Origin: an uncultured bacterium
GTDB lineage: Bacteria; Lernaellota; Lernaellaia; Lernaellales; Lernaellaceae
DNA: 30,896 nucleotides
NCBI GenBank assembly: GCA_964534375.1
Contig: CAZHPN010000062.1
Coordinates: 1 to 30,896 of the forward strand
Direction: 5' to 3'
The notes under the pieces: model-generated
Database searches by the model: none
What the model was told of the DNA's origin: nothing
What the model saw: only the letters and a program-made list of their open reading frames with translations
Shown here: positions 287 to 24,143 of the stretch, piece after piece
Layout: each line of letters begins with the position of its first letter
Position numbering within the stretch: the stretch's first letter is position 1
Program-made: the position numbers and the translations under genes

Positions 287-949
287 GTGCGCAAATTTTT
301 GCTCTGTGCGATCATCTTGATGACCGCCGCGGCGTTGGCGTGTTCGCATGGCTGCGCCACGAAAAGACACGAAGCGAGCCCCATCGATTGCCGCGATCCG
401 ATCGAGACCTGGATGAATGTGTGCCACTTTCCAATCGTCATGGACGGCGTCAATCCGATGACGTTCCAGCAAGCCTACGATTCCTGCCACGACAATTGGG
501 GCAGCGTCTGGTGGCAGTTCGTCCGCTGCTACAACTCGACCTATTTGCCGCAGAACAAAAGCTGCGCGGCGTTCCTCGCCTGCGTGCCCGAACATGGTTT
601 TGTCACGCCGCCGGCCGACGACGATACCGCCGCCGACGACGATGACAACGACGACACGTCGCCGCCCGTGGACGACGACGCCTCGCCGCCGGCGGACGAC
701 GACGATACGACGCCGGCGGATGACGATCAGACGCCGCCCGACGACGACGACGACAACGACGACGACAATGACGACAACGACGACACCTCGCCGCCGGCCG
801 ATGACGATACCCGGCCGCCCGACGACGACGATCTGACGCCGCCAACGGATGACGATGCCACGCCGCCGACGGATGACGACGCCACGCCGCCGACGGACGA
901 CGACGCCTCGCCGGCCGCCGCGCCGGCCGAGGAAGCGCCGCGCTGGTGA
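287..949 (+). CDS. Predicted lipoprotein: small Cys-rich domain plus long Asp/Pro/Thr-rich tail
   Basis: GGAGG SD and GTG start; signal MRKFLLCAIILMTAAALAC with lipobox-like ALAC; several Cys; ~110-aa tail of DDD[AQT][ST]PP repeats. Confidence 0.85.
   Translation: MRKFLLCAIILMTAAALACSHGCATKRHEASPIDCRDPIETWMNVCHFPIVMDGVNPMTFQQAYDSCHDNWGSVWWQFVRCYNSTYLPQNKSCAAFLACVPEHGFVTPPADDDTAADDDDNDDTSPPVDDDASPPADDDDTTPADDDQTPPDDDDDNDDDNDDNDDTSPPADDDTRPPDDDDLTPPTDDDATPPTDDDATPPTDDDASPAAAPAEEAPRW
836..912 (+). repeat. Intragenic 24-bp tandem repeat (about 3 copies, encodes PPTDDDA[TS])
   Basis: Units of the form acgccgccgacggatgacgacgcc are visible in tandem. Confidence 0.75.
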
Positions 950-959
950 CGCGCCGCAC

Positions 960-2672
960 GTGATCGCCGACGGCGCCCGCGAGCGAACGACGCCCGGGTC
1001 CGCCTCTATTCCTTCCAGCGCGCCGCTGTTCACCCGCGCGGCCGTGCGGGCGGCGATGGTTGTGTTTGCCGTCGCGACGGCCGTCTATTTGCCCAAGACG
1101 GTCAACCGCTTCACCTTCGACGATCGCATCTTCATCTTGCTGGACGCGAATGTACGCGACGTGCACGCCGCGCTGGGCGAGTTCGGCCGCGATCAGGCGC
1201 GGCTGTATCGGCCGTTGCGTTCCGTCGCGCTCGCCTCGTTGACGTCGGCGTTCGGACGGCAGCGGCCTCTGCCGTTTCATGTCGCCGGCATCCTTCTTCA
1301 CGCCGCGTGCGCCGCGCTTCTCACACTGATCGTCTGGCTGCTCGTCGCCGATCCGCCGGCGGCCCTGTTCGCCGGGCTGATTTTCGCGCTGCACCCCGTG
1401 CACGCCGACCGCGTCGCCAACATCACCGGAAGTTTCGACCTGCTCGGCCTCGCGCTCGGCTGGGGCGCGTGGCTGCTCGCGCTCCTGTACGACCGCGGCG
1501 CGCGTGCATGGACCGCCGGCGCCGCGGCGCTCGCCCTCCTGCTCGGTTGCCTTGCGAGCGAAGAAGCGCTGATGGTCTGGCCGCTCGCCGCCGCCTGTTT
1601 TCTGCTGTGGCCGGGCGACCGCCGGCGGCGCCGGCGTGTCATGGCCCTTTTGACCGCGGTCGTCGCCGGCTATTTGCTGGCCCGTTCGCTCGTGCTGGGC
1701 GGCGCGGCGCGCACCGCCGCGTACGCCGCCGGCAGCCTGTCCAACACGATTTGGACGATGGCCGTGGTCGCTTGGCGCTACGTCGGCTTGCTCTTTTTCC
1801 CGGTCGGCTTGAGCGCCGCCTACGGGCCGACCGTCCGCACGCAGCTCGATCCGGCGGCGGCGGCGGGGCTGCTGGGCATCGCGGCGCTGCTCGGCGCGGC
1901 CGTGGCGCTGCGCCGGCGCCCGGCCATTTCGCTGGCGATTGTTTGGTTTTTCCTGGGGCTGGCCCCCTTCAGCAACTTGTTGCGGGGCGACACGTTGATG
2001 GCGGAGCGCTACCTGTATGCCGGCTCGGGCGGCTTCGCGCTCGCCGCGGGGTTGCTGGCGGCGGGCCTGCGCGTCCGGCGGCGCGCGGCGACCGCGGCCA
2101 TGGCCGTGGTGCTCGCGATTTATGCAGTCGGCGTCGTCTCGCGTTGCGCCGCGTGGGGCCGGCCGGTGCAGCTCTGGACTGAAGCGGCCGTCCGCGAGCC
2201 GAACAGTTTCTTGGCGAACCTCAACGCCGGCTACCATTCGCTCGTCGCCGGGAAAACGAACAACGCCGAGCGCTTTGCGGCGCAGGCGCGCCGGCTGGAG
2301 CCGCAACGCGCGGAGCCGTTGATGCAACTCGCGGAAGTCGCGTTCGGCCGGCACGCGGACGGCGAAGCCGTGCGCTGGCTGACGACGGCGACGGAGACCG
2401 ACCCGGCGTATTGCCCGGCCTTCAGCGCGCTGGCGAAGGCGTGCGTGCAAACGAAAGACTATCCGCGGGCGGCGCGCACGGCGGTCGCCGCATTGAACTG
2501 TGATCCGCAAGAATCCGGCGCGCACTACGTGCTGGCGTATTTGTTGGTTGCGGCCGGGCATTGCGACGAAGCCGCCGCGCATTGGAGCGCGATCATCCGC
2601 GCCCAGCCGGAGCCGCCGGATTATCAGGCCGCCATCGAATTGCGCGCGCATTGCGCGCGATCAAAAGACTGA
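960..2672 (+). CDS. TMTC-like membrane glycosyltransferase (GT-C fold) with C-terminal TPRs
   Basis: F-T-F-DD in the first loop, LYRPL, HPVHADRVANITG and AERYLY motifs, multiple TM helices, TPR-like C-terminus. Start uncertain: in-frame GTG at 960 or ATG at 1056. Confidence 0.8.
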   Translation: MIADGARERTTPGSASIPSSAPLFTRAAVRAAMVVFAVATAVYLPKTVNRFTFDDRIFILLDANVRDVHAALGEFGRDQARLYRPLRSVALASLTSAFGRQRPLPFHVAGILLHAACAALLTLIVWLLVADPPAALFAGLIFALHPVHADRVANITGSFDLLGLALGWGAWLLALLYDRGARAWTAGAAALALLLGCLASEEALMVWPLAAACFLLWPGDRRRRRRVMALLTAVVAGYLLARSLVLGGAARTAAYAAGSLSNTIWTMAVVAWRYVGLLFFPVGLSAAYGPTVRTQLDPAAAAGLLGIAALLGAAVALRRRPAISLAIVWFFLGLAPFSNLLRGDTLMAERYLYAGSGGFALAAGLLAAGLRVRRRAATAAMAVVLAIYAVGVVSRCAAWGRPVQLWTEAAVREPNSFLANLNAGYHSLVAGKTNNAERFAAQARRLEPQRAEPLMQLAEVAFGRHADGEAVRWLTTATETDPAYCPAFSALAKACVQTKDYPRAARTAVAALNCDPQESGAHYVLAYLLVAAGHCDEAAAHWSAIIRAQPEPPDYQAAIELRAHCARSKD

Positions 2673-2724
2673 GAGGCTGAGAGGCTGAGAGGCTGAGAGG
2701 CTGCGCAAGACTGAGAGACTGCGC
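2667..2724. repeat. 8-bp tandem repeat (G[AG]CTGAGA)n
   Basis: gactgaga ggctgaga ggctgaga ggctgaga ggctgcgc aa gactgaga gactgcgc; the first unit contains the upstream gene's TGA stop. Confidence 0.85.
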
Positions 2725-2902
2725 GCGCCGGTGACTGGGAGACCAAAAGTTTGGTAGGTCAGCATCCGACCTCCCAGCCCTGCGGCCATGCCGCGCAGTC
2801 CTGCCGCGCCCGGCGCGCGGCGCAGCCTCTTGGTCTTTTGAAATGGTTCTCGGGCGACTTGCCGACGCCCAACATCGTTCACAGCTTCCCGTGAAGAGCG
2901 TC

Positions 2903-2943
2903 AAAAAACAAAACCCCGCGGACCTTTCGGTCCACGGGGTCTT
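2903..2943 (-). terminator. Rho-independent terminator of 2974..3624
   Basis: Minus strand ACCCCGTGGACC-GAAA-GGTCCGCGGGGT followed by TTTGTTTTTT. Confidence 0.9.
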
Positions 2944-2973
2944 TCGGTCATTGCGTTGACAGTTAACGGAGCG

Positions 2974-3624
2974 TTAGCAACCGCAACCGCTGTTGTTGTT
3001 CGAGCCGGGATGCGGAACCGGCGACTCGTCGTCGTCGGTCGGGCTGATTTCGCCGCCCGAGAAATCCCACACGCCGGACACGAAGGTCGCTGCCGCATCG
3101 TCGCCGGTCAGCGTCCAGGCGAAGCCATCGGTCCCGGCCGCGTCGGTCGTCGCGACGAAACTGAAGGTCAACGTCTCGCCTTCCTTAATGTCGCCGACTT
3201 CCGCTGAGGAGACCATTCCCTGGAATTCCCACGTGATCGTCGCGGTCGCTTCGGCATAGTCGGCTTTCCACGTGCCCAGGGTCGGATGCAACGCCTTCGG
3301 GGCCGCTACGGTTCCGTCCACCTTGTACGTCTTGCTGGGCAACGAAATGTCGACTTTCTTGATAGCGATCGTGCCGCCATTTTTGTTGAACACGTCAAAC
3401 GCGAAATCGTACTGCGTGTTCGCTTTCAGCATCACGGGATACGCGCCGCCGGCCGTGCCGGTCAAGCCGAAGATGTCGGTTGAGTCGTCGTCGGCCGGTG
3501 GTGAAGCATCATCGTCTGCGGGCGTCGCATCGTCGTCCGTCGGCGAAGCATCATCGTCCGCCGCGTACGCAACCACCGCCATGGCGCAGACCATCAGAGC
3601 GATCAACAGAAATTTCTTGAACAC
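2974..3624 (-). CDS. Secreted protein: Asp-rich linker, probable beta-sandwich domain, C-terminal GCGC
   Basis: AAGGAGG SD before GTG at 3624; signal peptide ending AYA; DDDASPTDDDATPADDDASPP linker; alternating beta-strand pattern; ends SNNNSGCGC-TAA. Confidence 0.85.
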   Translation of the reverse strand: MFKKFLLIALMVCAMAVVAYAADDDASPTDDDATPADDDASPPADDDSTDIFGLTGTAGGAYPVMLKANTQYDFAFDVFNKNGGTIAIKKVDISLPSKTYKVDGTVAAPKALHPTLGTWKADYAEATATITWEFQGMVSSAEVGDIKEGETLTFSFVATTDAAGTDGFAWTLTGDDAAATFVSGVWDFSGGEISPTDDDESPVPHPGSNNNSGCGC

Positions 3625-3906
3625 CTTATTCCTCCTTTCGTCCGCCGTTCCGGGCCATTTCTTCTTTCGGGCCAAGAACAAGCGGCCCCTGCTAAGTAGT
3701 GCGCCATCACCTCCTTTTCGATAAACTTCTTAAAGCATACGCAAAAAATCGTACTCTCCGGTCATGCTTTCTGCCGGTGAGATACCGCTCGCAAATTTAT
3801 TACCACGGGTTGGCAAGGGAATGCAACAAAAAAATTAGTGCGCGATTCCGCGGGTCTTTCGCCTGTGCGGCGAAGGGCTTGAAGGATTACTTCATAACTC
3901 AAAATA

Positions 3907-6276
3907 TTATTCAGTTGCGACAGCCGGCAAGCCCGAGTCTTCGGCGAACGCCGCGCCCATTTCCTGCAAACCGGCGAGGGCGCCATGGTGTTTCGGGTTG
4001 ATATTCAAGGCTTTTTTGAACCAGCGCACCGCCTCGTCCACGTTGCCTTCCGTCTGGTAGCTCAGGCCCATGGCGTACATCGCTTCGATGTTTTCCGGCG
4101 AATCTTCCAATAATTCTTGCAGAATAATCCGCGCGTTGCGGGGGTGGGCGTCGATGTTCAACGTGGCGAGGGTCAGCCGCGCCTGTTCGTTCTTCGGATT
4201 GATTTCCAGCGCGCGGTGGATGTGCGGACCGGCCTCGGCAAGGTTGCCGGAGTCAGCGAGGATATACCCGAGCGTGGCATGGGCGTCGGCGTTTTCCTCG
4301 TCCTTCGCCAGCACGTCGCTGAGCAGGCGCTCGGCTTCGTCAACGCGCTTTTGCCGATAACGAAGCTGCGCGAGATTGATCGCCGCCTTCGCGTAGTCGG
4401 GTTTCTCGGCCAGCGCTTGCCGCAGGTACGCCTCCGCCTTCTCGAGATTGCCCAGGCGCATGTAGTCAAACCCGACCTCGTTGAAAAGGCTCGCGTTGTG
4501 CGGCGTCAACGTCAGCGCCGTGAGGAAGGCTTTGTTGGCCAGATCCCACACCTGCCGCTGCTGGAAGCAGAAACCCATCTTCTCGAACGCGGAGCGGTTG
4601 TCGCGGTAAATCACGAGGCTGCGCTGATAGTATTCGATCGCCGTGCGGCAGTCGCCCATGGCGCGGTAGATTTCGCCGTAGTTGTACAGCACGGCGCTGT
4701 TGTGCAGCCGCGTACGGCTGGCGAGCTTCATCAATTGCAGCGCCTCGTCGAAGCGGTGCTGCTCGGCGTAGATGCCCGCGAGGTCGTTGTAGATCCACGC
4801 CGGCTCTTCGCGGTCGCGGGGCGCGAGGTATTCCAGGGCGCGGTTGAGGATTTTTTCCGCCTCGTCGTACTTCTTGTCCAGACGATAGACGTTGCCCAGC
4901 ACGACGTAGAGCAGCGTCGCGTTCGGCGCATCGGCGATCATCTTGTTGAACAACTGCTCGTTCTTGTACCAATCGGTATTGCGGCGAATCGTCAGCGCGG
5001 TATAGGACACCAGCAGCGCGGCCGTGACGACGAGCGCCGCGGTCCGCCGCCCCGCCACGTTGGTCGCCCACTCGCGATCCGCCGCCCAGGCGCCGATCTG
5101 GCCGATCAGCCGCGCCAGCGCCGCCGCGAGCACAAAGCAGACCGCGACGCTGGGCAGATACAGGAACCGCTCGGCCGTCATGAAACCCATGTCTTTCGGG
5201 CCGCTGATGCGCACAAAGTTGGACAGCGGCCCCAACGTGAGCATGTAGAACATCAAGGCGAACGATATCGTCGGATCGCGCTTCACGGTCGCCGCGGTCG
5301 CCGCTAACATCAACGCGAGGAAAACGAAGCCGGCCAGAAAGCCCGGGTCGAACGGCGATTCCACCAGCGGGTTTTGGATATACGCCGACAAGTGCACGGG
5401 CACGAACGTCTTCAACGTGTAGTAGCCGAGCGTCTTGACGAAGGTCAGAATCGTGGCGAGCGCGTTGAACGGATCTTTCGCCTGCGGGCTGAAACCGATC
5501 CGCCACGACCGGAAGAGGAAGTACGCGCCGACGATCGCCAATAGCAGCGCCGCTGGCGACAACAGCCAGGCCGCGCCCCGCGGCTTGCGGGCGTCCTTCA
5601 CAAACACCAAGGCGTAGGCCGCCGCGACCAGCGGCAGGGACACCGCCATCTCCTTGGCCAGCAGGCTCAGAACAAACACCGCCGCCATGACGGCGAGCAA
5701 ATGCCAGAACGGCTTGTCCTTGGCGCGCGGGTCGGCGCCCGGGGGCGGCGCGAAACCGCGCCGAGCGGCGACGCGTTCGACGAAGAGCATGTACGCCAGG
5801 AACGCCGCCAGGAAAAAGAGCGCGCAGAGCGGGTCGGTGCGGCCGGCGATCCACGTCACCGATTCGGTGTGGATCGGGTGCACCGCGAAGATGCCCGCGG
5901 CAAGCAAGGGCGTCAGCAACTTGCGGTTCACCAGTCGATAGAAAATGAAGAAGACCAGCAGCGTCGAGACATAGTGAATCAACAGGTTCGTCAAATGGTA
6001 GCCGGCCGGTTCTCCGCCGTGGAGCTTCCAATCGAGCGCATAGGTGATGGTCACCAGCGGCCGGTAGTAGCCGTACTTGCGGTTGTCGTCGGAGAAACCG
6101 AAGAAGTCGCGGGTGAAGATTTCCTTGAGGAAATTCCAGCTTTTGATTTGATAATCGAAGACGATGAGGCTGACGTCGTCCCAGATGAATTCGCCCTTGG
6201 GCGCGTTCCAGTAAGCCACGGCGACGCACGCCGCCAGCAGCACCACCGCCAACGCCAACTTGACTCGCAGACTCAT
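3907..6276 (-). CDS. TMTC-like membrane glycosyltransferase (GT-C fold) with long TPR array
   Basis: F-I-W-DD, YYRPL, HPIHTESVTWIAGR, LLAKE and AERFLYLPS motifs; roughly 9 TPR-like repeats; ATG at 6276 with GGAAGGA SD. Confidence 0.88.
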   Translation of the reverse strand: MSLRVKLALAVVLLAACVAVAYWNAPKGEFIWDDVSLIVFDYQIKSWNFLKEIFTRDFFGFSDDNRKYGYYRPLVTITYALDWKLHGGEPAGYHLTNLLIHYVSTLLVFFIFYRLVNRKLLTPLLAAGIFAVHPIHTESVTWIAGRTDPLCALFFLAAFLAYMLFVERVAARRGFAPPPGADPRAKDKPFWHLLAVMAAVFVLSLLAKEMAVSLPLVAAAYALVFVKDARKPRGAAWLLSPAALLLAIVGAYFLFRSWRIGFSPQAKDPFNALATILTFVKTLGYYTLKTFVPVHLSAYIQNPLVESPFDPGFLAGFVFLALMLAATAATVKRDPTISFALMFYMLTLGPLSNFVRISGPKDMGFMTAERFLYLPSVAVCFVLAAALARLIGQIGAWAADREWATNVAGRRTAALVVTAALLVSYTALTIRRNTDWYKNEQLFNKMIADAPNATLLYVVLGNVYRLDKKYDEAEKILNRALEYLAPRDREEPAWIYNDLAGIYAEQHRFDEALQLMKLASRTRLHNSAVLYNYGEIYRAMGDCRTAIEYYQRSLVIYRDNRSAFEKMGFCFQQRQVWDLANKAFLTALTLTPHNASLFNEVGFDYMRLGNLEKAEAYLRQALAEKPDYAKAAINLAQLRYRQKRVDEAERLLSDVLAKDEENADAHATLGYILADSGNLAEAGPHIHRALEINPKNEQARLTLATLNIDAHPRNARIILQELLEDSPENIEAMYAMGLSYQTEGNVDEAVRWFKKALNINPKHHGALAGLQEMGAAFAEDSGLPAVATE

Positions 6277-9743: not shown

Positions 9744-9993
9744 GATCCGGCACACGTTTCGACGAGTTACATCGAGCGCCAGAAATTGACGATCCGCATG
9801 AGCGATCGGCGGTTCACCCGTCTGACGAACGCCTTCTCGAAAAAAAGCGGAAAACCACGCGCATTCGGTCGCGCTGCATTTCATGTACTACAACTTTTGC
9901 CGCGTTCACCAACCGCTTCGCGTAACCCCCGCAATGGAAGCTGGCGTTGCGGATCACGTTTGGGATTTGGAAGAAGTGGTCGCGCTTCTCTAA
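9744..9993 (+). pseudogene. 3' remnant of an IS1-family DDE transposase, frameshifted
   Basis: Frame 0 reads DPAHVSTSYIERQKLTIRMSDRRFTRLTNAFSKK. After an extra A in the run at 9840-9846 it continues AENHAHSVALHFMYYNFCRVHQPLRVTPAMEAGVADHVWDLEEVVALL*. The N-terminal part is absent. Confidence 0.85.
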
Positions 9994-10229
9994 AAATATT
10001 GATTGACGGTTTGGTCTGCCTGTGGCATGTTCACGGCCCGTTTTCCCGCGTGGACTTAACTGCGTGGGGCAAAAGGAGGGGTGATGTGGTTTCCCGTCCG
10101 GGTTCAGTTGAACACGGGCCAGCCCAGCGTCGGGCGGAAAAACGACGCGGTAGCGGCGGAGGAATCGTTTCTCGGCCTTTTGTTTTCAGTGATCGGTTGG
10201 TCAGATTTAGAAACGAAAGGAGCGCTACA

Positions 10230-10556
10230 ATGGACGGACACGAAAAGAAGCAAAGCAAGATGTGGGAGAAGGTCAAAGCATTGTTCAATCGGTCAGGAAG
10301 CAATGTCCCCGGAAGCGCCAAAAGGCGAAACCACATGCGGGAATTCGGGAAAGCAATCCTTGAAATCGTACTAGTCTGCCTTGGTGTTGCCGCTATTAGC
10401 GTCGTTATCGGGCCCTTCGGTCTTGCCTTGTGCGGATTCGCGATTCGCGTAGGCGTCTTGACCATGATCGGCCTTGGCGTTGTTTTCTGGGCTCTTCAGA
10501 GGTCAATCGGGTTCATGCTCAACCGCATATGGCCCACTGAACTAGCGGCAATATAA
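10230..10556 (+). CDS. Small hypothetical membrane protein (108 aa, basic N-terminus, about 2 TM segments)
   Basis: AAAGGAG SD, ATG at 10230, hydrophobic C-terminal half, terminator immediately downstream. Confidence 0.6.
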   Translation: MDGHEKKQSKMWEKVKALFNRSGSNVPGSAKRRNHMREFGKAILEIVLVCLGVAAISVVIGPFGLALCGFAIRVGVLTMIGLGVVFWALQRSIGFMLNRIWPTELAAI

Positions 10557-10748: not shown

Positions 10749-10912
10749 GCGTTCGCATCAGTGCCAATGCATGAGCACGGGTGGCTGCCACTAGCCAGCA
10801 ATCATGCCCATACGTAGGCGCGATGTTGGAGAGGATGGAAGGGTTCCTAGTTGGGATCATGGTGACCGCCTCCTTGACCGTCAGCGTTACGCTGACCCTG
10901 GAGGTTAGTATC

Positions 10913-11020
10913 ATGAAAGCAATTATCGCTCTGATATGCGTAGTGGCGGGGACAGCGCTCCTGGGGCGGTCTGGCATGACATGTTTCCAAAACTACGAAG
11001 GAACTGACCGACTGATCTGA
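10913..11020 (+). CDS. Small hydrophobic peptide (35 aa; 61 aa if started at ATG 10835)
   Basis: GGAGG SD 8 nt before the ATG; sequence MKAIIALICVVAGTALLGRSGMTCFQNYEGTDRLI. The in-frame upstream ATG at 10835 also has a GGAGAGG. Confidence 0.4.
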   Translation: MKAIIALICVVAGTALLGRSGMTCFQNYEGTDRLI

Positions 11021-11030
11021 CTGAGCGTCG

Positions 11031-11085
11031 TTGAAATATGGGAGGGGCGCAGGGGGGTTCGATTCCCCCCCACCCCGCTATTCAA
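11031..11085 (+). other. Long hairpin capped by a tRNA-type T-loop
   Basis: TTGAA...GGGG-cgca-GGGGGG-TTCGATT-CCCCCC-ca-CCCC...TTCAA; no D or anticodon arms. Confidence 0.6.
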
Positions 11086-12495: not shown

Positions 12496-13485
12496 TCATT
12501 TCTTGGGTTTGAACGTGCAGTCGTTGTAGAACCCGGCCGGGAAGCCTTTCGCGTAGGGCGAGTCGACCGTGCCCAGCGGATGATCGCGGAGAAACTCGAT
12601 GAAATCTACGGGCGACATGTACAAGAAGCCCGCGTTGTGCGGGCCGGGATGCAGGCATTCCACCGCGTCGTGGCCGTTGTCGTTGAGGAAGATCACGTCG
12701 TTCGCGCCGTACTGCCCGAACGGCAGCACCATGACGTCGAGGACGCCGCCGTGCAGGCGCAGTTCCACATATTTGTTGGCGATCCCCGAAAGCGGCGGCC
12801 ACTTCGCAATCTCATACGGAATGACGTTCGCCGGGTCGCAACCGTAAACGCCCGAGCAGGTGGCGATCGAGGCGATCGTGTCGCCGCGGGTCACGCCCAG
12901 CAGGTCGGAGACGCCGCCGCCGAGCGAAAAGCCAATGGTGTGGATGTGGTTCGGGTCGACGCCCCAGCACTTGTCGATTTCCGCGACCAGCTCGTCGAAC
13001 AGCCGCACCTCGCGGTTCTTCGGGTTCGTGCCGTCGATGATATCCCAATCGAGCAGCATGCCCGAATCTTCCGGCGTGACGCCGATGAAATGGAAGCCGT
13101 CGAAATCGATCAGGTCGCTGATCAGCGTGCGCATGTTCGTCGCGGTGTCGCCGAAGCCGTGCCAATTGAACACCACCGGCCACGGCCAATGCTCTTTCAC
13201 GTCACTGGGCAGGTCGATATAGAACGACCGCGCAATGCCGTCAACCATGAACCCGGTGTTCCAGCCGTCGTGCAGGGTCGTGCAGCCCGGGGGCGGCGTG
13301 TCGTCGTCATCGTCGTCGGCCGGCGATTGATCGTCGTCGTCATCGGCCGCCGGCGATTGATCGTCGTCGTCGTCGATCGCGTTGTCGTCGTCGTCGCCGC
13401 TGCTGCTCGAGCCGCAGGCGACAAGCAGCGCCATCGCCGCCAGCAAGAGCAGGCCAAGCAACCAAAACCACGTTTTGTTTTTCAT
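12496..13485 (-). CDS. Lipoprotein alpha/beta hydrolase (PHB depolymerase/LpqC-like esterase)
   Basis: ATG at 13485 with GGAG SD; lipobox LVAC; Asp-rich linker; VFNWHGFG oxyanion region; nucleophile elbow GFSLGG; later Asp and His candidates. Confidence 0.85.
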   Translation of the reverse strand: MKNKTWFWLLGLLLLAAMALLVACGSSSSGDDDDNAIDDDDDQSPAADDDDDQSPADDDDDDTPPPGCTTLHDGWNTGFMVDGIARSFYIDLPSDVKEHWPWPVVFNWHGFGDTATNMRTLISDLIDFDGFHFIGVTPEDSGMLLDWDIIDGTNPKNREVRLFDELVAEIDKCWGVDPNHIHTIGFSLGGGVSDLLGVTRGDTIASIATCSGVYGCDPANVIPYEIAKWPPLSGIANKYVELRLHGGVLDVMVLPFGQYGANDVIFLNDNGHDAVECLHPGPHNAGFLYMSPVDFIEFLRDHPLGTVDSPYAKGFPAGFYNDCTFKPKK

Positions 13486-15112: not shown

Positions 15113-17002
15113 TTATTGCGGCTGGTCCGACAACACCAACCACGACGAGAGGTCGATCATCGGACCGTTGTTCGGATAATCCGCGCCGTCGTAATAGGCG
15201 TAGTACTGGAAGGTGTTTTCGGCGTCGGGGATGATCTGGCTGGTGACGTCCGTCATCGACATCGGCACCTGTTTGCCGGGGCACCAGCCGTCGCGGCCGT
15301 ACCACCACGTGCCGTATTGGTTGGGAACCGTGCCCTGATCGACGGCTTGCATGCAGCCGTAGGTGTTGCCGGCGTCGGGGAAGCTGATGACGTTGTCATG
15401 GCCGTTGACCACGAAATGGTGCTCGATATCGCAGAACTCGGCGCAGTTGCCGGGTTGATCGCCGCCATGGCCGGTGACCACCACGGCGAGGTCCGCCAAG
15501 CCGAAGCCGGACGGCACCGTCATCGTGATCGGCGAATGCTGCGTGTTGTAATCCGGACCCAACGTGCCGCCCGAGAACAGGAAGGTCGCGGCGTTCGGGC
15601 GGTCCGGCTTTTTGGCGTTGAACAGCCGCAGATTCAGCGTGACGTAGTACGCGTTTTGCGAATAGAAGGTGAACGTGCGGGTTCCGCCGTTGGCGATGAG
15701 GGGCAGGATGCCGCTGACATCGTGGACCCATTCGCCGATGCGATGATAGGTGGTGATCCAGCGGCCGAACTCGACGTCGCACACGGTGGGATCGTCGGGT
15801 TCGCAGAGCTGGAGGTTGACGATGTAATCCCACGCGGGGCAGAAGCCCATTTCGCCGGCGCCGATGCAATCCAGAGTAAGGTCGAGTTCGACCGAATCGA
15901 ACCCGGCCATGGTTGCGGCATCCGGCAAGTTCACCTCGGCCGTGAGCGTGCTCGGCGCGCCGTTCGCCGAAATCACGGTCTTGTTGAAGATGTTGACGAC
16001 GGTGGCGCCCTCGGCGTCCATGGCGGCTTTGCGGGTCGCCTCGTAGTTGTAGTAGATGGGTTCGTTCGCGGCCATCGACAGATTCGGATCGAACCACTGG
16101 GTGTTCGCGTCATAGCGCGTCGGGTCGGCGTAGCTGCCGATGTACCGGATGCGCTGGAAGCGGTCGATGCCGATGCCCCAGCCGGGCGACAACATCACCT
16201 GGCCGACCCAGCCCGGGATTTCCGCGGCGTTTTGCGTGGCGTAATGCAAGCGATGGAACCAACGATCCTGATCGGCCTGCGAAAGCGACGCCAAATACGG
16301 GGCGAATTGTTCTTGGAGCTTGTCGAGCAGGGCGGCGATCGCACTCGGGTCGGACACGGACTGGACGGCGAAAATGACCTGCACGTTGGGCGGCAGATCC
16401 TGCAAGAACTGGGCGCCGTCGCGTTCCCAAATGCCGATCGGCGAGCCGGCGTTTTGCGCCGGATCGTCCTGAATGATCAGGTAGGTTTCGCAGCCGGTCC
16501 AGTTTTCCTTCAGACTCCACGGGCCTTCGGTGGTGTTCACGGTGAAGTCCGCCGCGGTCGCGAAGAGGTCCGTGCTGTCCGGCACGTCGATAAACGGCAC
16601 GACGGGCATTTGCAAATCGCTGCACTGGAAATTGTTCGGCGGCGTCGCATCGTCGTCGGCCGGGCTGGCGTCGTCGTCGTCATCGGCGGGGCTGGCGTCG
16701 TCGTCGGCCCGCTCGGCGATGCATGCGGCGACGTCGGCGCAATTTGCCGCCGCGAGCACGCAGTTGCGGAATGACGCGGCGACGCTCGGGCAATCGCCGA
16801 GACATAGCGCGGTCGTCGGCACGTCGAGCGCGGGGCCCTGCTCGCATTCTTCAATCCGGGAACAGTACGTGGCGCATTCCGTCGCAACGGTTCCGCCCCC
16901 GCCGCTGCTGCTGCTGGATTTGGCGCAGCCGGCCAACAGAAAAAGCCCGGACCAGACGATCAGCAAGGCGACCGTCGTTCGCATCGCTAGATTTTTTTTC
17001 AT
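15113..17002 (-). CDS. Lipoprotein with Cys-rich domain and C-terminal PNGase F-like domains
   Basis: GAGGGAG SD and ATG 17002; lipobox LAGC; CPAWDY, EFGRWITTY, TGHG, CAEFC and GTWWYGRDGWCPG match PNGase F family motifs. Confidence 0.85.
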   Translation of the reverse strand: MKKNLAMRTTVALLIVWSGLFLLAGCAKSSSSSGGGGTVATECATYCSRIEECEQGPALDVPTTALCLGDCPSVAASFRNCVLAAANCADVAACIAERADDDASPADDDDDASPADDDATPPNNFQCSDLQMPVVPFIDVPDSTDLFATAADFTVNTTEGPWSLKENWTGCETYLIIQDDPAQNAGSPIGIWERDGAQFLQDLPPNVQVIFAVQSVSDPSAIAALLDKLQEQFAPYLASLSQADQDRWFHRLHYATQNAAEIPGWVGQVMLSPGWGIGIDRFQRIRYIGSYADPTRYDANTQWFDPNLSMAANEPIYYNYEATRKAAMDAEGATVVNIFNKTVISANGAPSTLTAEVNLPDAATMAGFDSVELDLTLDCIGAGEMGFCPAWDYIVNLQLCEPDDPTVCDVEFGRWITTYHRIGEWVHDVSGILPLIANGGTRTFTFYSQNAYYVTLNLRLFNAKKPDRPNAATFLFSGGTLGPDYNTQHSPITMTVPSGFGLADLAVVVTGHGGDQPGNCAEFCDIEHHFVVNGHDNVISFPDAGNTYGCMQAVDQGTVPNQYGTWWYGRDGWCPGKQVPMSMTDVTSQIIPDAENTFQYYAYYDGADYPNNGPMIDLSSWLVLSDQPQ

Positions 17003-17686: not shown

Positions 17687-18565
17687 GTGTTTTTTCTGGA
17701 GGACCTCAAGAAATACGTCTGGCTCGGGCGGATCATGGCGGTCGCCCTGTGCGCCTATTTGTCGGCGGGCGCCGTCTCGACCTATGTGCGCGGGTTGTTT
17801 ACGCAAACGCCGACGCTGAATCTGCCGGCGATTGCCTCGCCGAGCTACACATTCCGGCCCCTGACCGACTACGACATGATCCTGAAGCGCAGCCTGTTCA
17901 ACTCGGCGGGAGTCAACATGCAGGCCACCTTCTCGAAAAAGGACAGCGGGCCGGCGGCGACCGCCGAAGACCTGACGCTTCTCGGAACGGTCGCGGGGGA
18001 GCCCGAAGATTCCTACGCCGTGATCAGCACCAAGCACGACAACAAAACCGACGTATACCGTGTCCACGACAAAATCGGCGAGGAAACCGAGGTCGTGGCG
18101 ATCCGGTCGCGGGATGTCGAGTTGTTGCGCAACGGCGAGATGGAGACGATCAAACTGCCCGACCTCGACAACGTGAAACAACTGAGCGATCGGTGGGCCA
18201 AGGGGCCGGGAAAAGACATCGCCGAGGGCATCCGGAAGGTCGGCGAACACGAATACGTCGTGAGCAAGGAGTTGATCGACGCCGCCTTCAAGGACATGGG
18301 GAAGTTGATGACCGGCGCGCGGCTGATGCCGAATTTCGACGCCGGCAAGTTCGCCGGCTTCAAGATTTCGCACATTCAGAAGGACAGTTTATATAAAATC
18401 ATCGGGCTGGAAGACGGCGACACGCTCTACCGCGTGAATTCCAAGGAAATCAACAACCCGCTGGACGGCTTGCGCGTGATCCAGGATCTGCAAACGGCGA
18501 AGAACATTTCCATCGACTTCGCGCGCAACGGCCAGCGGCAGACGTCGTCGTTCACCGTGAGGTGA
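17687..18565 (+). CDS. gspC: Type II secretion protein C (TM-HR-PDZ), copy 1
   Basis: N-terminal TM, LLGTVAG...YAVI HR motif, PDZ-like GFKI...IGLEDGD..RVN; lies upstream of gspD and gspE; GTG start. Confidence 0.88.
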   Translation: MFFLEDLKKYVWLGRIMAVALCAYLSAGAVSTYVRGLFTQTPTLNLPAIASPSYTFRPLTDYDMILKRSLFNSAGVNMQATFSKKDSGPAATAEDLTLLGTVAGEPEDSYAVISTKHDNKTDVYRVHDKIGEETEVVAIRSRDVELLRNGEMETIKLPDLDNVKQLSDRWAKGPGKDIAEGIRKVGEHEYVVSKELIDAAFKDMGKLMTGARLMPNFDAGKFAGFKISHIQKDSLYKIIGLEDGDTLYRVNSKEINNPLDGLRVIQDLQTAKNISIDFARNGQRQTSSFTVR

Positions 18566-18726
18566 GCGGAGGCGCCGCCCGCGCTGGCCGCGGTTCCTCG
18601 TCATTCGCCACGATGGGAATTGCGGATTTGGGCCCCATCGCGCTGCGGATTTGAACCGGGAAGAATGGGCCGTGTCCAAATGGCGGCAGGATGGCGCTCC
18701 CCACTGATGTGCATGGGGCAAGCAGC

Positions 18727-18755
18727 TTGCCAACGCGGGCGTATCTTGTTATGGT
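18727..18755 (+). promoter_or_regulatory. Putative internal sigma70 promoter for gspC2-gspDE
   Basis: TTGCCA-N17-TATGGT with an extended TG. Confidence 0.45.
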
Positions 18756-18820
18756 CTGGCGATTTTCTTCCCCGGACGACAAACCGGGGGGTCGGGAAAC
18801 GATTGGGATGAAACGGCAAT

Positions 18821-19699
18821 ATGTTTTTTCTTGAGAGCCTGAAGAAATATTTCTGGGTCGGGCGGATCTTGCTCGTCGGCCTGTGCGCCTACCTGTCGGC
18901 GAACGCCGTCTCGATCTATGTGCGGGGATCGTTGTCGCAAACGCCGACGCTGAGTCTGCCGGCAGTGGCGGCGTCGAGCGTCGCGTACAAATCGTTGAAC
19001 GACTACGACATGATTCTGAAGCGCAGTCTGTTCAATTCGGCGGGCGTCAACATGCAGGCGAGCTTCACGAAAAAAGAAAGCGGGCCGGCGGTGACCGTCG
19101 AGGATATGGTGCTGCTGGGCACGATCGCCGGGGAACCCGAGATTTCGTACGCCGTGATCAACACCAAGCACGACAGCAAGACCGAGGTGTACCGCATGCA
19201 CGACAAAGTCGGCGGCGAAGCCGAGGTCGTGGCGATTCGCGCCCGGGAAGTCGAGTTGCTGCGCAACGGCGAAAAGGAAACGATCAAACTGCCCGAACTC
19301 GATGATTTGAAGAAGGCGGGCGATCGTTGGGCCAAGGGCGCGGGCAAAGACATCGCCGACGGCATCCGAAAACTCGGCGATCACGATTTTGTCGTGAGCA
19401 AGGAATTGATCGACGCCGCCTTCAAAGACATGGGAAAATTGATGAGCGGGGCGCGGCTAATGCCGAACTTCGACGGCGGCAAGATCAACGGCTTCAAGAT
19501 TTCGCACATTCAGAAGGACAGCTTGTATAAGCTGATCGGGCTGGACGACGGCGATGTGCTGCATCGCGTGAATTCGAAAGAAATCAACAACCCGCTGGAT
19601 GGGCTGCGCGTGATCCAGGAATTGCAAACGGCGAAGAACATTTCCATCGACTTCTCGCGCAACGGTCAGCGGCAAACGTCGTCGTACACGGTACGATAG
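18821..19699 (+). CDS. gspC: Type II secretion protein C, copy 2
   Basis: 292 aa, colinear with copy 1 (hand count 229/292 identical); directly precedes gspD. Confidence 0.9.
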   Translation: MFFLESLKKYFWVGRILLVGLCAYLSANAVSIYVRGSLSQTPTLSLPAVAASSVAYKSLNDYDMILKRSLFNSAGVNMQASFTKKESGPAVTVEDMVLLGTIAGEPEISYAVINTKHDSKTEVYRMHDKVGGEAEVVAIRAREVELLRNGEKETIKLPELDDLKKAGDRWAKGAGKDIADGIRKLGDHDFVVSKELIDAAFKDMGKLMSGARLMPNFDGGKINGFKISHIQKDSLYKLIGLDDGDVLHRVNSKEINNPLDGLRVIQELQTAKNISIDFSRNGQRQTSSYTVR

Positions 19700-19748
19700 C
19701 TGGGCGGTCGCGCCCGCGATGATCGATAAGGCGGATTTGGGAGCGAGC

Positions 19749-22418
19749 ATGAATTTTCCGTGTTACCGCAGGTGGTTGCTGATCCTTCTGCTGGCAGCGT
19801 GCCTGGGCGCCGCAGCCCATGTCGCCGGGCCGCGCCTCGGGCCCGAGCCCGCATACGCCCAGGAAAATCCGGCTCCCGCCCCCGCGCCCGCTCCGGCGCC
19901 CGCGCCCCCCGTTCCGCCGACCCCGCCGACCCCGCCAAAAGTAAAAGAACTTGAATCCGCGTCGCCGACGCCGCTGCCCGAAATCAGCGAATGCCCCGCC
20001 GGCAAGGTGCGCGTCAATTTCAACGAAACGGACCTTCGCGAAATCGTCAAGACGATGGCGACGATGACCAATCAGAACTTTCTGCTCGACAAGTCCATTA
20101 CCGGGCAGATCACCATCGTCTCGCCGACCTGCGTGACCACCGAAGAAGCGTACGACATCTTTCTGTCGGTGCTGTACGTCAACGGCATGACGACCGTGAA
20201 AGTCGGCAAGCTGACGAAAATCATCAAGCGCGCCGACGCGCAGACGCAGCCGATTCAAACCAATGTGGACGGTCTGGGCCGCGACAACGAACGGTACATC
20301 ACGCAACTGATCAAGTTGAAAAACCTCGATGCGGTGGATATCGCGGGCTCCTTTCGGCCGCTGATCAGCAACGACGGCAACGTCTTCGCCTACGGTCCCG
20401 CGAACATGCTGATCATTCTGGACAGCGCTGCGAACATCAACCGCCTCTACCGCATTCTCCAAAAACTCGACGTTGAAGGCACCGAGCAATTGATCGAAGT
20501 GATGCCGGTCGAGTACGCGGCGGCCGACGCGCTCGCCGACGTCATCCTGCAGCTCTTCGAACAAGAAGCGCGAATTTCCGGAATGTCCGGCGGCGGCGCC
20601 AACAACCCGCTCAGCCAACTGCGCCAGCGGCTGCAACAGCAGCAGGGCGCACGGCCCGGCGCCCCGGCGGCGCTCGGCCAACGGCCGGGGGCCACGGGGG
20701 GCGCGCTGTCGGTCGCCAATGGCGAAACGTTGCGCATCATCCCCGACGCCCGCACGAACAGCCTCGTGGTGAAAGCGAGCACGTATACCTTAAAGCGGGT
20801 GAAGGAAGTCATCGCCAAGCTCGACCAACCGCTGCCCGGCGGCGAAGGCAAGATCCACGTGGTGTATCTGGAAAACGCCAACGCCACCGATCTCGCCGGC
20901 ATCCTGGCCGACCTCGCCGGAACCGGCGGCGGCGGCGGTGCGGCGGGCCAGCGGCGGCCCGGGACTTCCGGCCAGGCCGGGCGGCCGGGCTCGCAGGCGG
21001 GCGGCGCGGCGGGCGCGTTCGCGTCGCGCTTTGGCGGCAGCTCGAGCGGCGGCTTGGGCAGTTCCGCCCTGAACCGCTCGGGCGCCGGCGGGCAGCTCGG
21101 GGCCGGCGGCATCAGCCGCGATCAAGGCAATCCGACGCGCGGCATCGCGACGACCTCGGGCCGGTTTCTGGCGGACTTCGAAGGCGCGGTCCGCATTACG
21201 GCCGACCCGGCGACGAACAGCCTGGTGATCATCGCCAGCAACCGCGACATGGAAATCCTGCGGGAAGTCATCACGAAACTCGATATCCCGCGGCCGCAGG
21301 TGTACGTCGAAGTGATGATCGCGGAAATCACGTCCTCGCGCGGCGTGACTCTCGATATGGAATTTCGCTCGACCAACAATCCCACGTCGAAGGGCGTGCA
21401 AGTGATCGGCGGCACCAACTACGGCGGCATTCAGAACGCCGCCGCCAACCCGCTGGGCATCTCGGGCTTTGCCATCGGCGCGTCCGACGGCACGATCACG
21501 TTCAACGGCCAGACGTTCCCCAACATCGGCGCGCTGTTCACGGCGATGCAAACCGACAGCGACGTCAACATCATGGCGACGCCGCACCTGCTGACAACGG
21601 ATAACGAGCAAGCCGAAGTCATCATCGCCGACAACATTCCGTTCATCACCGGCCAGATTTACTCGACCAATTTCGCGGCGCCGACAACCACGATCGAGCG
21701 GCAGGACGTCGGCATTACGCTGCGCATCACGCCGTCGATCAACGAATCCGACATGGTGCGCCTGACGATCTATACGGAAAATTCGACGGTCACCGACAGC
21801 CCGGCCGGCCTGTCGGCGGCGCAGGTGGGCATCACCACGGCCAAGCGCAGCGCCGACACCGTGGTTGTCGTGAAGAGCCGCCAGACGGTGGTCATCGGCG
21901 GCCTGATGCAGGACAACATTACGTACACGGAATCGAAAGTCCCGGTGTTCGGCGACATCCCGGTCATCGGGTACTTTTTCAAGAACAGCAGCCGCACGGT
22001 CAACAAGACGAATCTGCTGATTTTCATCACGCCGCACATCATTAAGGACACGGGCGACCTGGAAGAAGTCACCCGGATGAGCAACTACCGCTTGCAACAG
22101 TTCCGGCAGCAAAACAAGATGCCCGGCCGCCGCAACCTCGATGAAGAAACCATGCAGCCCGAGGAACGCGTTTTCCGGCCGCCGGAACCGCCCGCGATCG
22201 AAATCGACCCGACCAAACGCGGCACATCCGTGCGGAAACCGGCCGAAGTGACGCCGGAACCGGCCGCGGCCCCGCCGGCCAACAATCAGCCCGCCAGCGG
22301 GCAATCCGGCGGCGGGCAATCCGGCGGCAGCCAGTCGAGCGGCGGCCAATCGAGCGGCGGTCAATCTGGCGGCGGCCAGCCCTCCGATCCCGATTTTGGC
22401 GGCAGCGGCGGCAAGTAA
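19749..22418 (+). CDS. gspD: Type II secretion secretin
   Basis: N0 domain (VNFNETDLREIV), N-domain repeats (DARTNSLVV, DPATNSLVI), LDIPRPQVYVE, secretin motifs RQDVGITLRITP and KVPVFGDIPVIGYFF...NLLIFITPHII. Confidence 0.95.
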   Translation: MNFPCYRRWLLILLLAACLGAAAHVAGPRLGPEPAYAQENPAPAPAPAPAPAPPVPPTPPTPPKVKELESASPTPLPEISECPAGKVRVNFNETDLREIVKTMATMTNQNFLLDKSITGQITIVSPTCVTTEEAYDIFLSVLYVNGMTTVKVGKLTKIIKRADAQTQPIQTNVDGLGRDNERYITQLIKLKNLDAVDIAGSFRPLISNDGNVFAYGPANMLIILDSAANINRLYRILQKLDVEGTEQLIEVMPVEYAAADALADVILQLFEQEARISGMSGGGANNPLSQLRQRLQQQQGARPGAPAALGQRPGATGGALSVANGETLRIIPDARTNSLVVKASTYTLKRVKEVIAKLDQPLPGGEGKIHVVYLENANATDLAGILADLAGTGGGGGAAGQRRPGTSGQAGRPGSQAGGAAGAFASRFGGSSSGGLGSSALNRSGAGGQLGAGGISRDQGNPTRGIATTSGRFLADFEGAVRITADPATNSLVIIASNRDMEILREVITKLDIPRPQVYVEVMIAEITSSRGVTLDMEFRSTNNPTSKGVQVIGGTNYGGIQNAAANPLGISGFAIGASDGTITFNGQTFPNIGALFTAMQTDSDVNIMATPHLLTTDNEQAEVIIADNIPFITGQIYSTNFAAPTTTIERQDVGITLRITPSINESDMVRLTIYTENSTVTDSPAGLSAAQVGITTAKRSADTVVVVKSRQTVVIGGLMQDNITYTESKVPVFGDIPVIGYFFKNSSRTVNKTNLLIFITPHIIKDTGDLEEVTRMSNYRLQQFRQQNKMPGRRNLDEETMQPEERVFRPPEPPAIEIDPTKRGTSVRKPAEVTPEPAAAPPANNQPASGQSGGGQSGGSQSSGGQSSGGQSGGGQPSDPDFGGSGGK
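22297..22380 (+). repeat. Intragenic 15-bp repeat encoding (GQSGG)n in the GspD tail
   Basis: Translates as SGQSGGGQSGGSQSSGGQSSGGQSGGGQ. Confidence 0.7.
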
Positions 22419-22436
22419 CAAGAGGAATCCAGCGCC

Positions 22437-24143
22437 ATGCGCCAGCGACTCGGTGAAATACTCGTCGAGATGAACCTCGTCACGGCCGCGCAGGTCGGTG
22501 ACGGGCTCGCGGCCCAAGCCGAAAAAGGCGGCCGCATCGGCGAAAACCTGATCAAAATGCGAATCGTCACGGAATCGCAGGTGTTGCAAGCGCTCGCCAA
22601 GCAACTCGGTCTGCCCTTCCAAGAGATGATGCCGCCCGAGGCGATCGATTCCGCGTTAGTCTCGAAGATTCCGATCGCCTACGCCAAACGCAAACTGATT
22701 CTGCCGCTCCACGTCGTTGAGCAATCAGGCAAGATCCGCATCGCCTGCGCCGATCCGCTCGATTTCCAGACGATCGACGACATGAGCCTGTTCCTTGGCG
22801 GCGAACTCGAAATCATCATCTGTCCGAGCGGCGTGATTTTCGACACGATCAACCTCACCTACGACAAGATGAGCACCACGACCGCCGACATGATGAGCGA
22901 TCTGGAAGAAGAGCAAGGTTACGGGGAACTTTACGAAGAAGCCCCGGACCTGATCGATGTCGAAGACGAAGAAGCGCCGATCATCCGGCTGGTGAACCAC
23001 CTGATGTTCCGCGCGGTGAAGGAACGGGCCAGCGACATTCACGTCGAGCCGTTCGAGAACGAGATCGTCGTGCGGTTCCGCATCGACGGCGTGCTCTACG
23101 AAGTCATGAAGCCGCCGAAGCGGTTCCAATCGTCGATCGCCAGCCGCATCAAGATCATGGCCAGCCTGAACATCGCCGAAAAGCGGCTGCCGCAGGACGG
23201 CCGCATCCGCATCAAGATCGCCGGCAAAGACATCGACATCCGCACCAGCGTCATCCCCACCGCGCACGGCGAGCGCGTCGTCATGCGTTTGCTGGACAAA
23301 TCGTCCGTGCGCCTCGACCTTGAAAATCTTGGCTTGGCCGGCGCCAAGTTCCATACGCTGCTCGAGTTGATTCAACAGCCGCACGGAATTTTGCTAGTCA
23401 CCGGCCCGACCGGCTCCGGCAAAACGACGACACTGTACGCCGCGCTCGTGCGCCGCAACACGTCAGACGTCAACATCCTGACCATCGAAGACCCGGTCGA
23501 ATATCAGATCAAGGGCCTCGGCCAGATGCAGGTCAATCCGAAAATCAATCTGACCTTCGCCAGCGGGCTGCGGGCCTTTCTCCGGCACGACCCCGACATC
23601 ATTCTCGTCGGCGAAATCCGCGACCTGGAGACCGCCGAAATCGCGATCCAAGCGTCGCTTACCGGCCACTTGGTGTTTTCGACGCTGCACACCAACGATT
23701 CCGCCAGCGCGTTGACCCGGTTGGTCGACATGGGCGTCGAGCCGTTCCTCGTGTCCAGTTCGCTGACCGGCGTCATGGCGCAACGCCTCGTGCGCGTGTT
23801 GTGCAAGGAGTGCAAGAAACTGGTCACGCCGGACGCCAAGCAAATTGCGGCGTTGGGCCTGGAAGCGGCCGTGCTGGCCAACACGCCGATTTATACGTCG
23901 GTCGGTTGCCCGGCCTGTCTCAACACCGGGTTCGCGGGCCGCTCGGCGATCTACGAAATTCTGGTGGTGCACGACGACCTGCGCGCAATGGTGCTCAAGA
24001 ACGTCGACGCCTCGACGATCAAGCGCCACGCCATCGAAAAATACGGCATGGAAACCTTGCGCATGGACGGCGCCAACAAGGTCCGCGCCGGCCAGACGTC
24101 CATGGAAGAAGTGCTGCGCGTCACCCAGGCCGACATCGAGTAG
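22437..24143 (+). CDS. gspE: Type II secretion ATPase with MshEN-like N-terminus
   Basis: RLGEILV...RIGENL N-terminus, ASDIHVEP, Walker A GPTGSGKTT, EDPVEY, GEIRD, TGHLVFSTLH, CxxC...CxxC. Confidence 0.96.
   Translation: MRQRLGEILVEMNLVTAAQVGDGLAAQAEKGGRIGENLIKMRIVTESQVLQALAKQLGLPFQEMMPPEAIDSALVSKIPIAYAKRKLILPLHVVEQSGKIRIACADPLDFQTIDDMSLFLGGELEIIICPSGVIFDTINLTYDKMSTTTADMMSDLEEEQGYGELYEEAPDLIDVEDEEAPIIRLVNHLMFRAVKERASDIHVEPFENEIVVRFRIDGVLYEVMKPPKRFQSSIASRIKIMASLNIAEKRLPQDGRIRIKIAGKDIDIRTSVIPTAHGERVVMRLLDKSSVRLDLENLGLAGAKFHTLLELIQQPHGILLVTGPTGSGKTTTLYAALVRRNTSDVNILTIEDPVEYQIKGLGQMQVNPKINLTFASGLRAFLRHDPDIILVGEIRDLETAEIAIQASLTGHLVFSTLHTNDSASALTRLVDMGVEPFLVSSSLTGVMAQRLVRVLCKECKKLVTPDAKQIAALGLEAAVLANTPIYTSVGCPACLNTGFAGRSAIYEILVVHDDLRAMVLKNVDASTIKRHAIEKYGMETLRMDGANKVRAGQTSMEEVLRVTQADIE

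Follow-up and report, generated by a model that had tools for sequence, protein, structure and literature searches.

Animal TMTC1-4 are protein O-mannosyltransferases that transfer mannose from a lipid-phosphate donor to Ser/Thr of cadherin EC domains. These proteins, which were assigned to family GT105 (PMC6801728), combine a glycosyltransferase membrane domain of the GT-C type with an arm of tetratricopeptide repeats (TPRs), carry the motifs DD, SHKSYRP, KE, DW and, before the tenth transmembrane helix, ERxxY (PMC7801869), and modify immunoglobulin (Ig)-like folds, not unstructured regions (PMC11292533). Prokaryotic TMTC homologues are already in print (PMC7801869). Two further enzymes of the same general build are TMEM260 (GT117), whose TPRs bind an extended strand of its Ig-like (IPT) acceptor (bioRxiv 10.64898/2026.03.17.711096), and TfpW of Pseudomonas, a GT-C protein with 11 predicted transmembrane helices and a periplasmic TPR region that is encoded directly after pilA and glycosylates the pilin (bioRxiv 10.1101/2020.04.19.049825). 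In TMTC as in TMEM260, the acceptor is recruited by the TPRs (PMC11292533, bioRxiv 10.64898/2026.03.17.711096). The present analysis concerns two TMTC-like genes, A and B, in a 30,896-nt stretch of DNA (the window), contig C62 of an uncultured bacterium of the lineage FEN-1099/Lernaellota (genome G000; 6.3 Mb, 381 contigs, 4810 called genes), which was compared within a phylum set of 17 genomes, i.e. G000 and 16 relatives. The original prediction had read A and B, each with a small exported protein beside it, as one dedicated O-glycosylation system of four genes. The analysis yields instead one strong pair, consisting of B and an Ig-like protein ending in GCGC (the sandwich protein), one weak pair, consisting of A and a lipoprotein, and no four-gene system.

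The four open reading frames and their convergent arrangement were borne out, with the following features:

287..949, + strand: predicted lipoprotein with a lipobox, a small Cys-rich domain and an Asp/Ser/Thr/Pro-rich tail; adjoins A in one family only
960 (or 1056)..2672, + strand: TMTC-like A, ~570 aa, with DD, YRP, HPxH and AERxLY, SEE replacing KE, and a short TPR arm
2910..2943, - strand: intrinsic terminator of the sandwich gene, 15-bp stem followed by a T run; RNA contigs end at 2950-2987
2974..3624, - strand: sandwich (GCGC) protein, 216 aa, with a signal peptide, an acidic linker, a beta-sandwich, a second acidic linker and a C-terminal GCGC, no membrane helix
3049..3477, - strand: beta-sandwich domain (residues 50-192), an Ig fold like that of YcnI/DUF1775 but lacking the N-terminal copper His
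3706..3716, - strand: stand-alone Shine-Dalgarno-like AAGGAGGTGAT in the 5' leader, ~80 nt ahead of the real ribosome-binding site
3797..3826, - strand: predicted sigma70-type promoter of the sandwich gene, its boxes found by eye
3907..6276, - strand: TMTC-like B, 789 aa, with a GT-C membrane domain (~1-440) followed by a TPR arm, of which the proximal part (441-590) is best conserved

The signal that rises above chance at this locus is the conservation of B together with the sandwich gene across genomes of three families. B orthologues (40-66% identity) are present in 15 of the 16 relatives, the exception being G008, and in 12 of these 15 the next same-strand gene after B, ~210-310 bp away, is a sandwich homologue. 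In the other three (G002, G010 and G012) the contig ends at most 450 bp past B, in each case within the shared leader or promoter or within the beginning of a matching signal peptide. The synteny in relatives that had been suggested as a check is present on the side of B. Four further cases were found in metagenome loci (L169, L171, L172 and L177), not counting L168, whose sequence is that of the window, L170, L173 and L175, which repeat counted proteins, and L174, L176 and L178, which have no downstream flank. On the outer sides of the pair, upstream of B and downstream of its partner, the genes differ among genomes, and in some genomes several sandwich copies stand beside B (5 in G001, 3 in G005 and 4 in G006). 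Since the sandwich gene is kept behind B in relatives, its product is a likely sugar acceptor. In some assemblies B is split (G012 and G016), as is the sandwich gene in G013 (loci L033, L034 and L030 for the three genomes); these splits may be assembly errors, because an intact copy of the G013-type sandwich gene occurs in metagenome locus L175.

Proteins A and B are 28% identical to each other (E 4e-23) and both contain TPRs, the only domains that the Pfam and NCBIfam scans recognized at the pair of pairs, neither small protein giving any match. In A, the motifs are found at positions 54-55 (DD), 83-85 (YRP), 145-148 (HPVH) and 348-353 (AERYLY), and in B at D33-D34, 71-73 (YRP), 133-136 (HPIH), 208-209 (KE) and 368-373 (AERFLY). 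All 26 aligned homologues have DD, RP, E209 and ER-x-x-Y unchanged. As in TMTC1-4, a GT-C domain is joined to a TPR arm, with DD, YRP and ERxxY in both proteins and KE in B; the KE motif (M4, loop EL3) is K208-E209 in B and is reduced in A to the Glu of SEE. The residues preceding YRP are KYGY in B and ARL in A, where TMTC motif M2 reads SHKSYRP, and A has an Arg at the position where Glu follows HPxH. A crude hydropathy scan gave 8 transmembrane helices for A and 9 for B, against 11 in TMTC; the full-length alignment of the B model implies the TMTC topology. Superposition of the Atlas model of B residues 1-450 on a chordate TMTC1 model, i.e. of one predicted structure on another, gave a template modelling (TM) score of 0.84 over 417 residues, and many bacterial clusters matched the B model at 0.82-0.88. 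PDB sequence searches with the membrane domains returned no significant match and no TMTC structure, and Pfam PMT_2 was matched by 6 of the 26 aligned homologues (best 8.8e-6). The predicted fold and most motifs place B among the TMTC-type GT-C proteins, though one family marker fails (see below), and A is assigned to the same type by homology, from its identity to B. The expectation that both transferases would prove TMTC-like, with DD, YRP, HPxH, AERxLY and TPRs, accordingly held, as did that of a structural match to TMTC for the predicted membrane domain of B.

The TMTC-like family is common, with 363 matches at 1e-10 among 7994 scored candidates, and G000 alone has 19 GT-C genes at E<1e-40, ~15 of them with the motif series. 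In a FastTree tree of 117 membrane domains (two rows were excluded as too short) A and B fall into separate clades, and all B orthologues form one clade with support 100; a B homologue labelled Candidatus Lernaella stagnicola is 57% identical. Within B, mean identity is higher in the proximal TPRs (64%) than in the membrane domain (54%), as would be expected for a substrate clamp, and 7 basic, 5 Asn and 9 acidic positions of these TPRs are kept. A recent paralogue of A (L303; G000:C207:6794-8563), 54% identical, has GT2, B12-radical-SAM and carbamoyltransferase genes as neighbours but lacks a lipoprotein gene.

The 143-residue sandwich domain was detected in all 17 genomes of the phylum set, with 1-11 matches each. 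When 1.84 billion representatives were searched with its profile, 129 matched (53 at 1e-30), the strong ones being mostly exported proteins of 200-260 aa with acidic linkers and GCGC-like ends. An alignment-based model of the domain reached a predicted local distance difference test (pLDDT) value of 94.8 and a predicted TM score of 0.89, the single-sequence fold of the protein (pLDDT 44.8) being unusable. The top fold match was YcnI (7me6; Z 13.6, root-mean-square deviation 1.8 A, 112 aligned residues, 18% identity), followed by a Nocardia DUF1775 protein (3esm; Z 12.9) and by Ig domains of pilins and adhesins near Z 10. The candidate acceptor of B thus shares with those of TMTC1-4 a predicted Ig-like beta-sandwich, unlike them with YcnI as its best match; a cadherin was neither hit in Pfam nor present among the 50 fold matches listed, an absence that does not exclude one further down. 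Pfam DUF1775 did not match the sandwich protein, a PDB sequence search with the sandwich profile gave nothing significant, and an Atlas search with the domain gave leads under 0.9 only. YcnI binds copper by way of the N-terminal His27, Glu50 and Trp137 (bioRxiv 10.1101/2021.06.11.448128). In most sandwich homologues the predicted mature N-terminus reads Ala/Gln-Asp-Asp with no His there, so that the copper site is missing. At least 75% Ser/Thr is found in columns 70, 139, 140, 159, 160 and 165. A second copy of the domain in G000, 70% identical (L304; G000:C10:1972-2904), is part of a lipoprotein whose C-terminal module is Cys-rich and which lacks the GCGC tail.

The tail of the sandwich protein resembles MYXO-CTERM, in which a GCGC-type Cys motif follows a low-complexity linker and itself precedes a transmembrane helix plus a basic tail (bioRxiv 10.1101/2023.06.07.544157, PMC11980579); unlike MYXO-CTERM, the protein stops at GCGC, with no helix and no basic tail, and TIGR03901 did not match it. 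In five genomes, the pattern of an exported protein with an acidic linker ending in GCGC-stop without a helix occurs at 36, 33, 8, 10 and 29 sites; the reversed control gave 0-6.

Beside TfpW, the pilin D-arabinofuranosyl transferase of P. aeruginosa group IV, B is likewise a bacterial GT-C protein with TPRs that is encoded next to a surface protein and, by prediction, modifies Ser/Thr, and distant relatives of B sit beside pilin genes. The likeness is one of features, and there are differences: the partner of B is a Sec-exported, Ig-like GCGC protein encoded downstream from its own promoter, and in the window neither A nor B has a pilin neighbour, such neighbours being confined to distant relatives. 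TMEM260 also unites GT-C and TPRs, and its strand binding offers a model for the choice of acceptor by B; it belongs to a separate family, whose PF11028 matched one other gene of G000 and one of G015 and not A or B. The statement of the original prediction that bacterial TMTC-type homologues lack defined substrates stands in that none was found in literature searches, which covered few subscription papers; it needs the caveat of TfpW, a bacterial GT-C/TPR enzyme, homologous to TMTC or not, with a pilin substrate. The words 'glycosyl', 'GCGC' and 'TPR' are absent from the main text of the Lernaellota paper (PMC9324843).

The sandwich gene has an AT-rich leader with a strong ribosome-binding site. 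Its predicted promoter consists of TTGCAT (3826-3821), an 18-nt spacer and an extended -10 element TG-n-TAATAA (3805-3797), and is preceded by a T-tract; a strict promoter scan gave it no score, and promoter-like elements also precede most sandwich homologues. The leader element AAGGAGGTGAT is kept in same-family relatives, as a variant in G012, and an Rfam search of the leader and the window found no family. Eight of 15 metatranscriptome runs, found by using the window sequence itself, were examined; in 8/8 (7 studies) mismatch-free RNA contigs span the sandwich gene from ~2950 to 3780, with starts near the promoter at 3779, 3770 and 3761. These contigs carry neither strand nor expression level. 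None of the RNA pieces listed bridges the sandwich gene and B, and A and B are barely covered, which in contigs can neither show absence nor rank expression. For the latter reason, the contig depth in run X6 (178.5 for the sandwich gene, 2.5-29 for other window pieces) was discarded as evidence. Together these data give a weak hint that the sandwich gene is transcribed separately. The pairing described in the original prediction is retained on the plus strand, where the lipoprotein gene and A are arranged like an operon, and is modified on the minus strand, where the GCGC gene lies downstream of B as what appears to be a transcription unit of its own.

The lipoprotein fared less well as a partner of A. 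It precedes A in 6/6 same-family relatives with flanking sequence, G007 being truncated at contig ends, and this count is close to the background rate for tight pairs. That rate was taken from an adjacency control, in which 400, 400 and 300 kb of G015, G014 and G001 were compared with G000, and in which tight pairs were still adjacent in 32/44, 36/44 and 34/45 cases, respectively, the last being the figure that applies here. In other families the lipoprotein homologues are on different contigs from the A-like gene, which is surrounded there by glycosyltransferase genes, and the four such lipoprotein loci inspected had no TMTC-like neighbour within 1.5 kb. In two other families (L249:9289-18242 of G015; L046-L052) the A-like gene follows a TMEM260-like gene, assigned by PF11028 in G015 and by best hit in the others; the run in G015 reads GT-C, TMEM260-like, TMTC-like, GT2, GT2, GT4. 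The lipoprotein may be considered a weak candidate, and is unlikely to be the acceptor of A.

The Asp-rich tails, presented as dedicated acceptors, did not stand up either. DD-x-[ST]-P occurs at least twice in 240 proteins of G000; the window sandwich protein has four copies, whereas among 19 homologues the motif is found once in 4 and never in 15, and of 8 aligned lipoprotein homologues only those of G000 and G004 have the Ser/Thr-Pro tail. In view of the genome-wide frequency and the absence from homologues, a conserved acceptor sequon DDD-x-[ST]-P was rejected. Nor do TMTC-like genes of this genome have Asp-rich neighbours as a rule: among the immediate neighbours of the other 17 GT-C genes of G000, 1/31 is Asp-rich against a background of 463/8241 (5.6%), and 2/81 within three genes on either side (permutation p 0.66-0.87). 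Furthermore, A and B are convergent neighbours in only 3/7 same-family relatives (G001, G004 and G005), which speaks against the four genes as one system. Of the idea that the neighbours are acceptors, what is supported is the linkage of B to the sandwich gene and the Ig-like fold of its product; the lipoprotein-A pair and the Asp tail are not.

Distant relatives of B were surveyed at 160 loci, the best 80 of 539 in genomes and the best 80 of 508 in metagenomes, which formed 82 clusters at 60% identity (7 of this lineage and 75 outside). Of the neighbouring open reading frames, 78/124 were scanned against Pfam, excluding likely shadow frames, those with N and sandwich genes; the neighbour counts stand without a background rate and the seed patterns bias the sample. 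A pilin-type neighbour is present in 10/75 outside clusters, 9 by pilin N-methylation and 1 pilin-like by NCBIfam, and the pilin-adjacent clusters form three groups on the FastTree tree. The gene directly upstream encodes a MYXO-CTERM protein in two clusters and an IPTL-CTERM protein in one, all above curated cut-offs; the three (L214:771-1544, L224:4388-4783, L149:3463-4872) come from other phyla, and the MYXO-CTERM proteins are small, their acidic linkers being of the (DA)n or (DG)n type. Sulfatase-like neighbours occur in 16 clusters and are, along with other glycosyltransferases (GT-C, GT2), the commonest class. In 11/14 sulfatase-like neighbours inspected (L104, L112, L114, L115, L122, L156, L186, L206, L209, L214 and L224) SWTxP is found at the nucleophile position, its Thr standing where true sulfatases have Cys/Ser, and these neighbours are possibly phospho-form transferases. 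Some are fused to the GT-C gene (P0194).

It is proposed that B O-glycosylates Ser/Thr residues of the Ig-like sandwich protein in the periplasm, a reading for which the prospects are evenly balanced. A DPM1/GtrB-like GT2 enzyme encoded elsewhere in the genome, where 15 short GT2 homologues could supply the donor, would make a polyprenyl-phosphate-linked sugar; the emerging Sec-exported acceptor would be held by the conserved proximal TPRs of B, the first-loop Asp pair would catalyse transfer onto Ser/Thr, and the glycosylated product would reach the surface by way of its GCGC tail. The dispersed sandwich paralogues are probably acceptors of B as well, and A, judged from its sequence, would be a second such enzyme, to which no acceptor is assigned. 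In a wider form of the proposal, which we regard as rather doubtful, B would be a fold-specific protein O-glycosyltransferase that corresponds in prokaryotes to the TMTC-cadherin system, with a TPR arm by which a phylum-specific Ig-like domain on a helix-free GCGC anchor is recognized; the B subfamily would then be a mobile module repeatedly paired with the surface protein of its lineage (pilin, MYXO-CTERM, IPTL-CTERM or GCGC), often accompanied by a sulfatase-like enzyme with a Thr nucleophile, which would decorate the sugar.

Several observations weigh against glycosylation of the sandwich protein by B. In distinction from TMTC1-4, the DW motif is absent from loop EL4 of both A and B, and Pfam DUF1736 (PF08409) stayed below threshold, with 1/26 homologues at E 0.043; with this marker missing and the activity predicted only, A and B were not filed as GT105. 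Six Asp/Glu columns of the sandwich domain, at equal background frequency, are as conserved as the Ser/Thr columns, which therefore show availability and not selection. With a promoter of its own, the sandwich gene does not require co-expression with B. Exported Asp-rich proteins are so common in G000 (368 of 4810 called genes, with 37 genes of the genome ending in GCGC) that standing beside one is no evidence. In the adjacency control, same-strand pairs with a gap of at least 150 bp were still adjacent in 3/12, 7/15 and 3/10 cases, and no p-value is given because the genomes are kin. Of 40 further sandwich-domain loci, 39 have no TMTC-like gene, three of these probably being B-adjacent copies cut by contig ends. 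In G008 (L312:3187-7128, C82) the only sandwich domain opens a 586-aa exported protein ending in QCCK, whose gene faces, head-to-head, a TMTC-like gene that has lost DD, KE and ER and has no placement on the FastTree tree (long branch); this degenerate gene fits a non-catalytic partnership as well. The sulfatase-like and glycosyltransferase neighbours of distant relatives, finally, also fit modification of a glycan or lipid.

That last point leads to an alternative which we consider distinctly improbable, namely that the sandwich protein is a partner or merely a neighbouring surface component and that B acts on a glycan or glycolipid, possibly an anchor on GCGC tails. GT-C homology alone does not set the acceptor class, the lipid-modifying ArnT being the closest solved structure to TMTCs (PMC7801869), and the neighbours just mentioned (sulfatase-like, GT2, GT-C) as well as the catalytically degenerate gene of G008 would agree with it; so would the lack of a helix after GCGC, GCxC-plus-transmembrane tails numbering 0 among the 4810 called genes of G000. 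The characterized GT-C/TPR enzymes considered here, TMTC, TMEM260 and TfpW, however, all act on proteins, and G008 keeps GCGC tails without B. The same genome bears on the alternative that B, with A and the paralogues, is a general O-glycosyltransferase for many exported proteins, e.g. on Thr/Ser of their linkers, with the sandwich protein as an abundant client, since G008, where no B orthologue is present, shows 8 GCGC-stop sites (control, 1). Such an enzyme would have ample substrate in the 368 Asp-rich exported proteins, whose tracts are ~12% Ser+Thr, and could hold extended peptides with the 7 basic and 5 Asn positions of its TPRs; there is one B orthologue per genome in 15/16 relatives, and most sandwich paralogues lie far from B. 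The proximal TPRs nevertheless keep 9 acidic positions too, linker composition is not conserved, and animal TMTCs prefer folds, unstructured regions being POMT targets (PMC11292533), so that we hold a general enzyme to be unlikely. B as an enzyme required by all GCGC tails is disfavoured, G008 having such tails without it.

The adjacency itself might be no more than inherited gene order, with A and B two of ~15 paralogous envelope glycosyltransferases that have unrelated acceptors. The persistence of 13/37 wide-gap and 102/133 tight control pairs agrees with this, as does the lack of Asp-rich enrichment beside other GT-C genes of G000, and for the lipoprotein-A pair the explanation is well suited. 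For B it is the hardest to credit of the explanations considered, because B and the sandwich gene stay together in three families despite a change of neighbours on both sides, additional sandwich copies have accumulated next to B, and a TMTC-like gene again adjoins the sandwich domain in G008.

Elsewhere in the window, a search for tRNA and tmRNA genes found none. A low-GC island (10058-10556 and 10818-11040) follows mutS2, near what we take to be an insertion-sequence-like remnant at 9786-9993. It includes a small membrane open reading frame (10229-10556), with another stand-alone element, AAGGAGGGGTGATG, in its leader. It also includes a stretch of 220 nt (~10820-11040), which RNA contigs of three runs cover from the same start to the same end; this stretch contains a 35-aa hydrophobic open reading frame (10913-11020), gave no Rfam match and is possibly a small RNA or a type I toxin-like gene. 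Genes for type II secretion occupy 17687-24143 and include gspD, gspE and a tandem of two gspC-like paralogues; in myxobacteria, GCGC-type proteins reach the surface by type II secretion (bioRxiv 10.1101/2023.06.07.544157, PMC11980579). Further exported proteins are encoded at 12496-13485, 15113-17002 and 26281-28350, namely two lipoproteins with Asp linkers, of which one carries a GH88 domain, and a further lipoprotein whose C-terminal domain is of the peptide-N-glycosidase F type.

The sandwich protein is a candidate for an expressed surface protein in FEN-1099/Lernaellota, a phylum that has been little studied, and B with its soluble Ig-like domain of 143 residues makes a small and directly testable enzyme-acceptor system. 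As no TMTC structure was matched in PDB by sequence, the bacterial pair could serve as a model for substrate choice by TMTCs. If the proposal is true, fold-directed O-glycosylation of Ig-like domains exists in bacteria.

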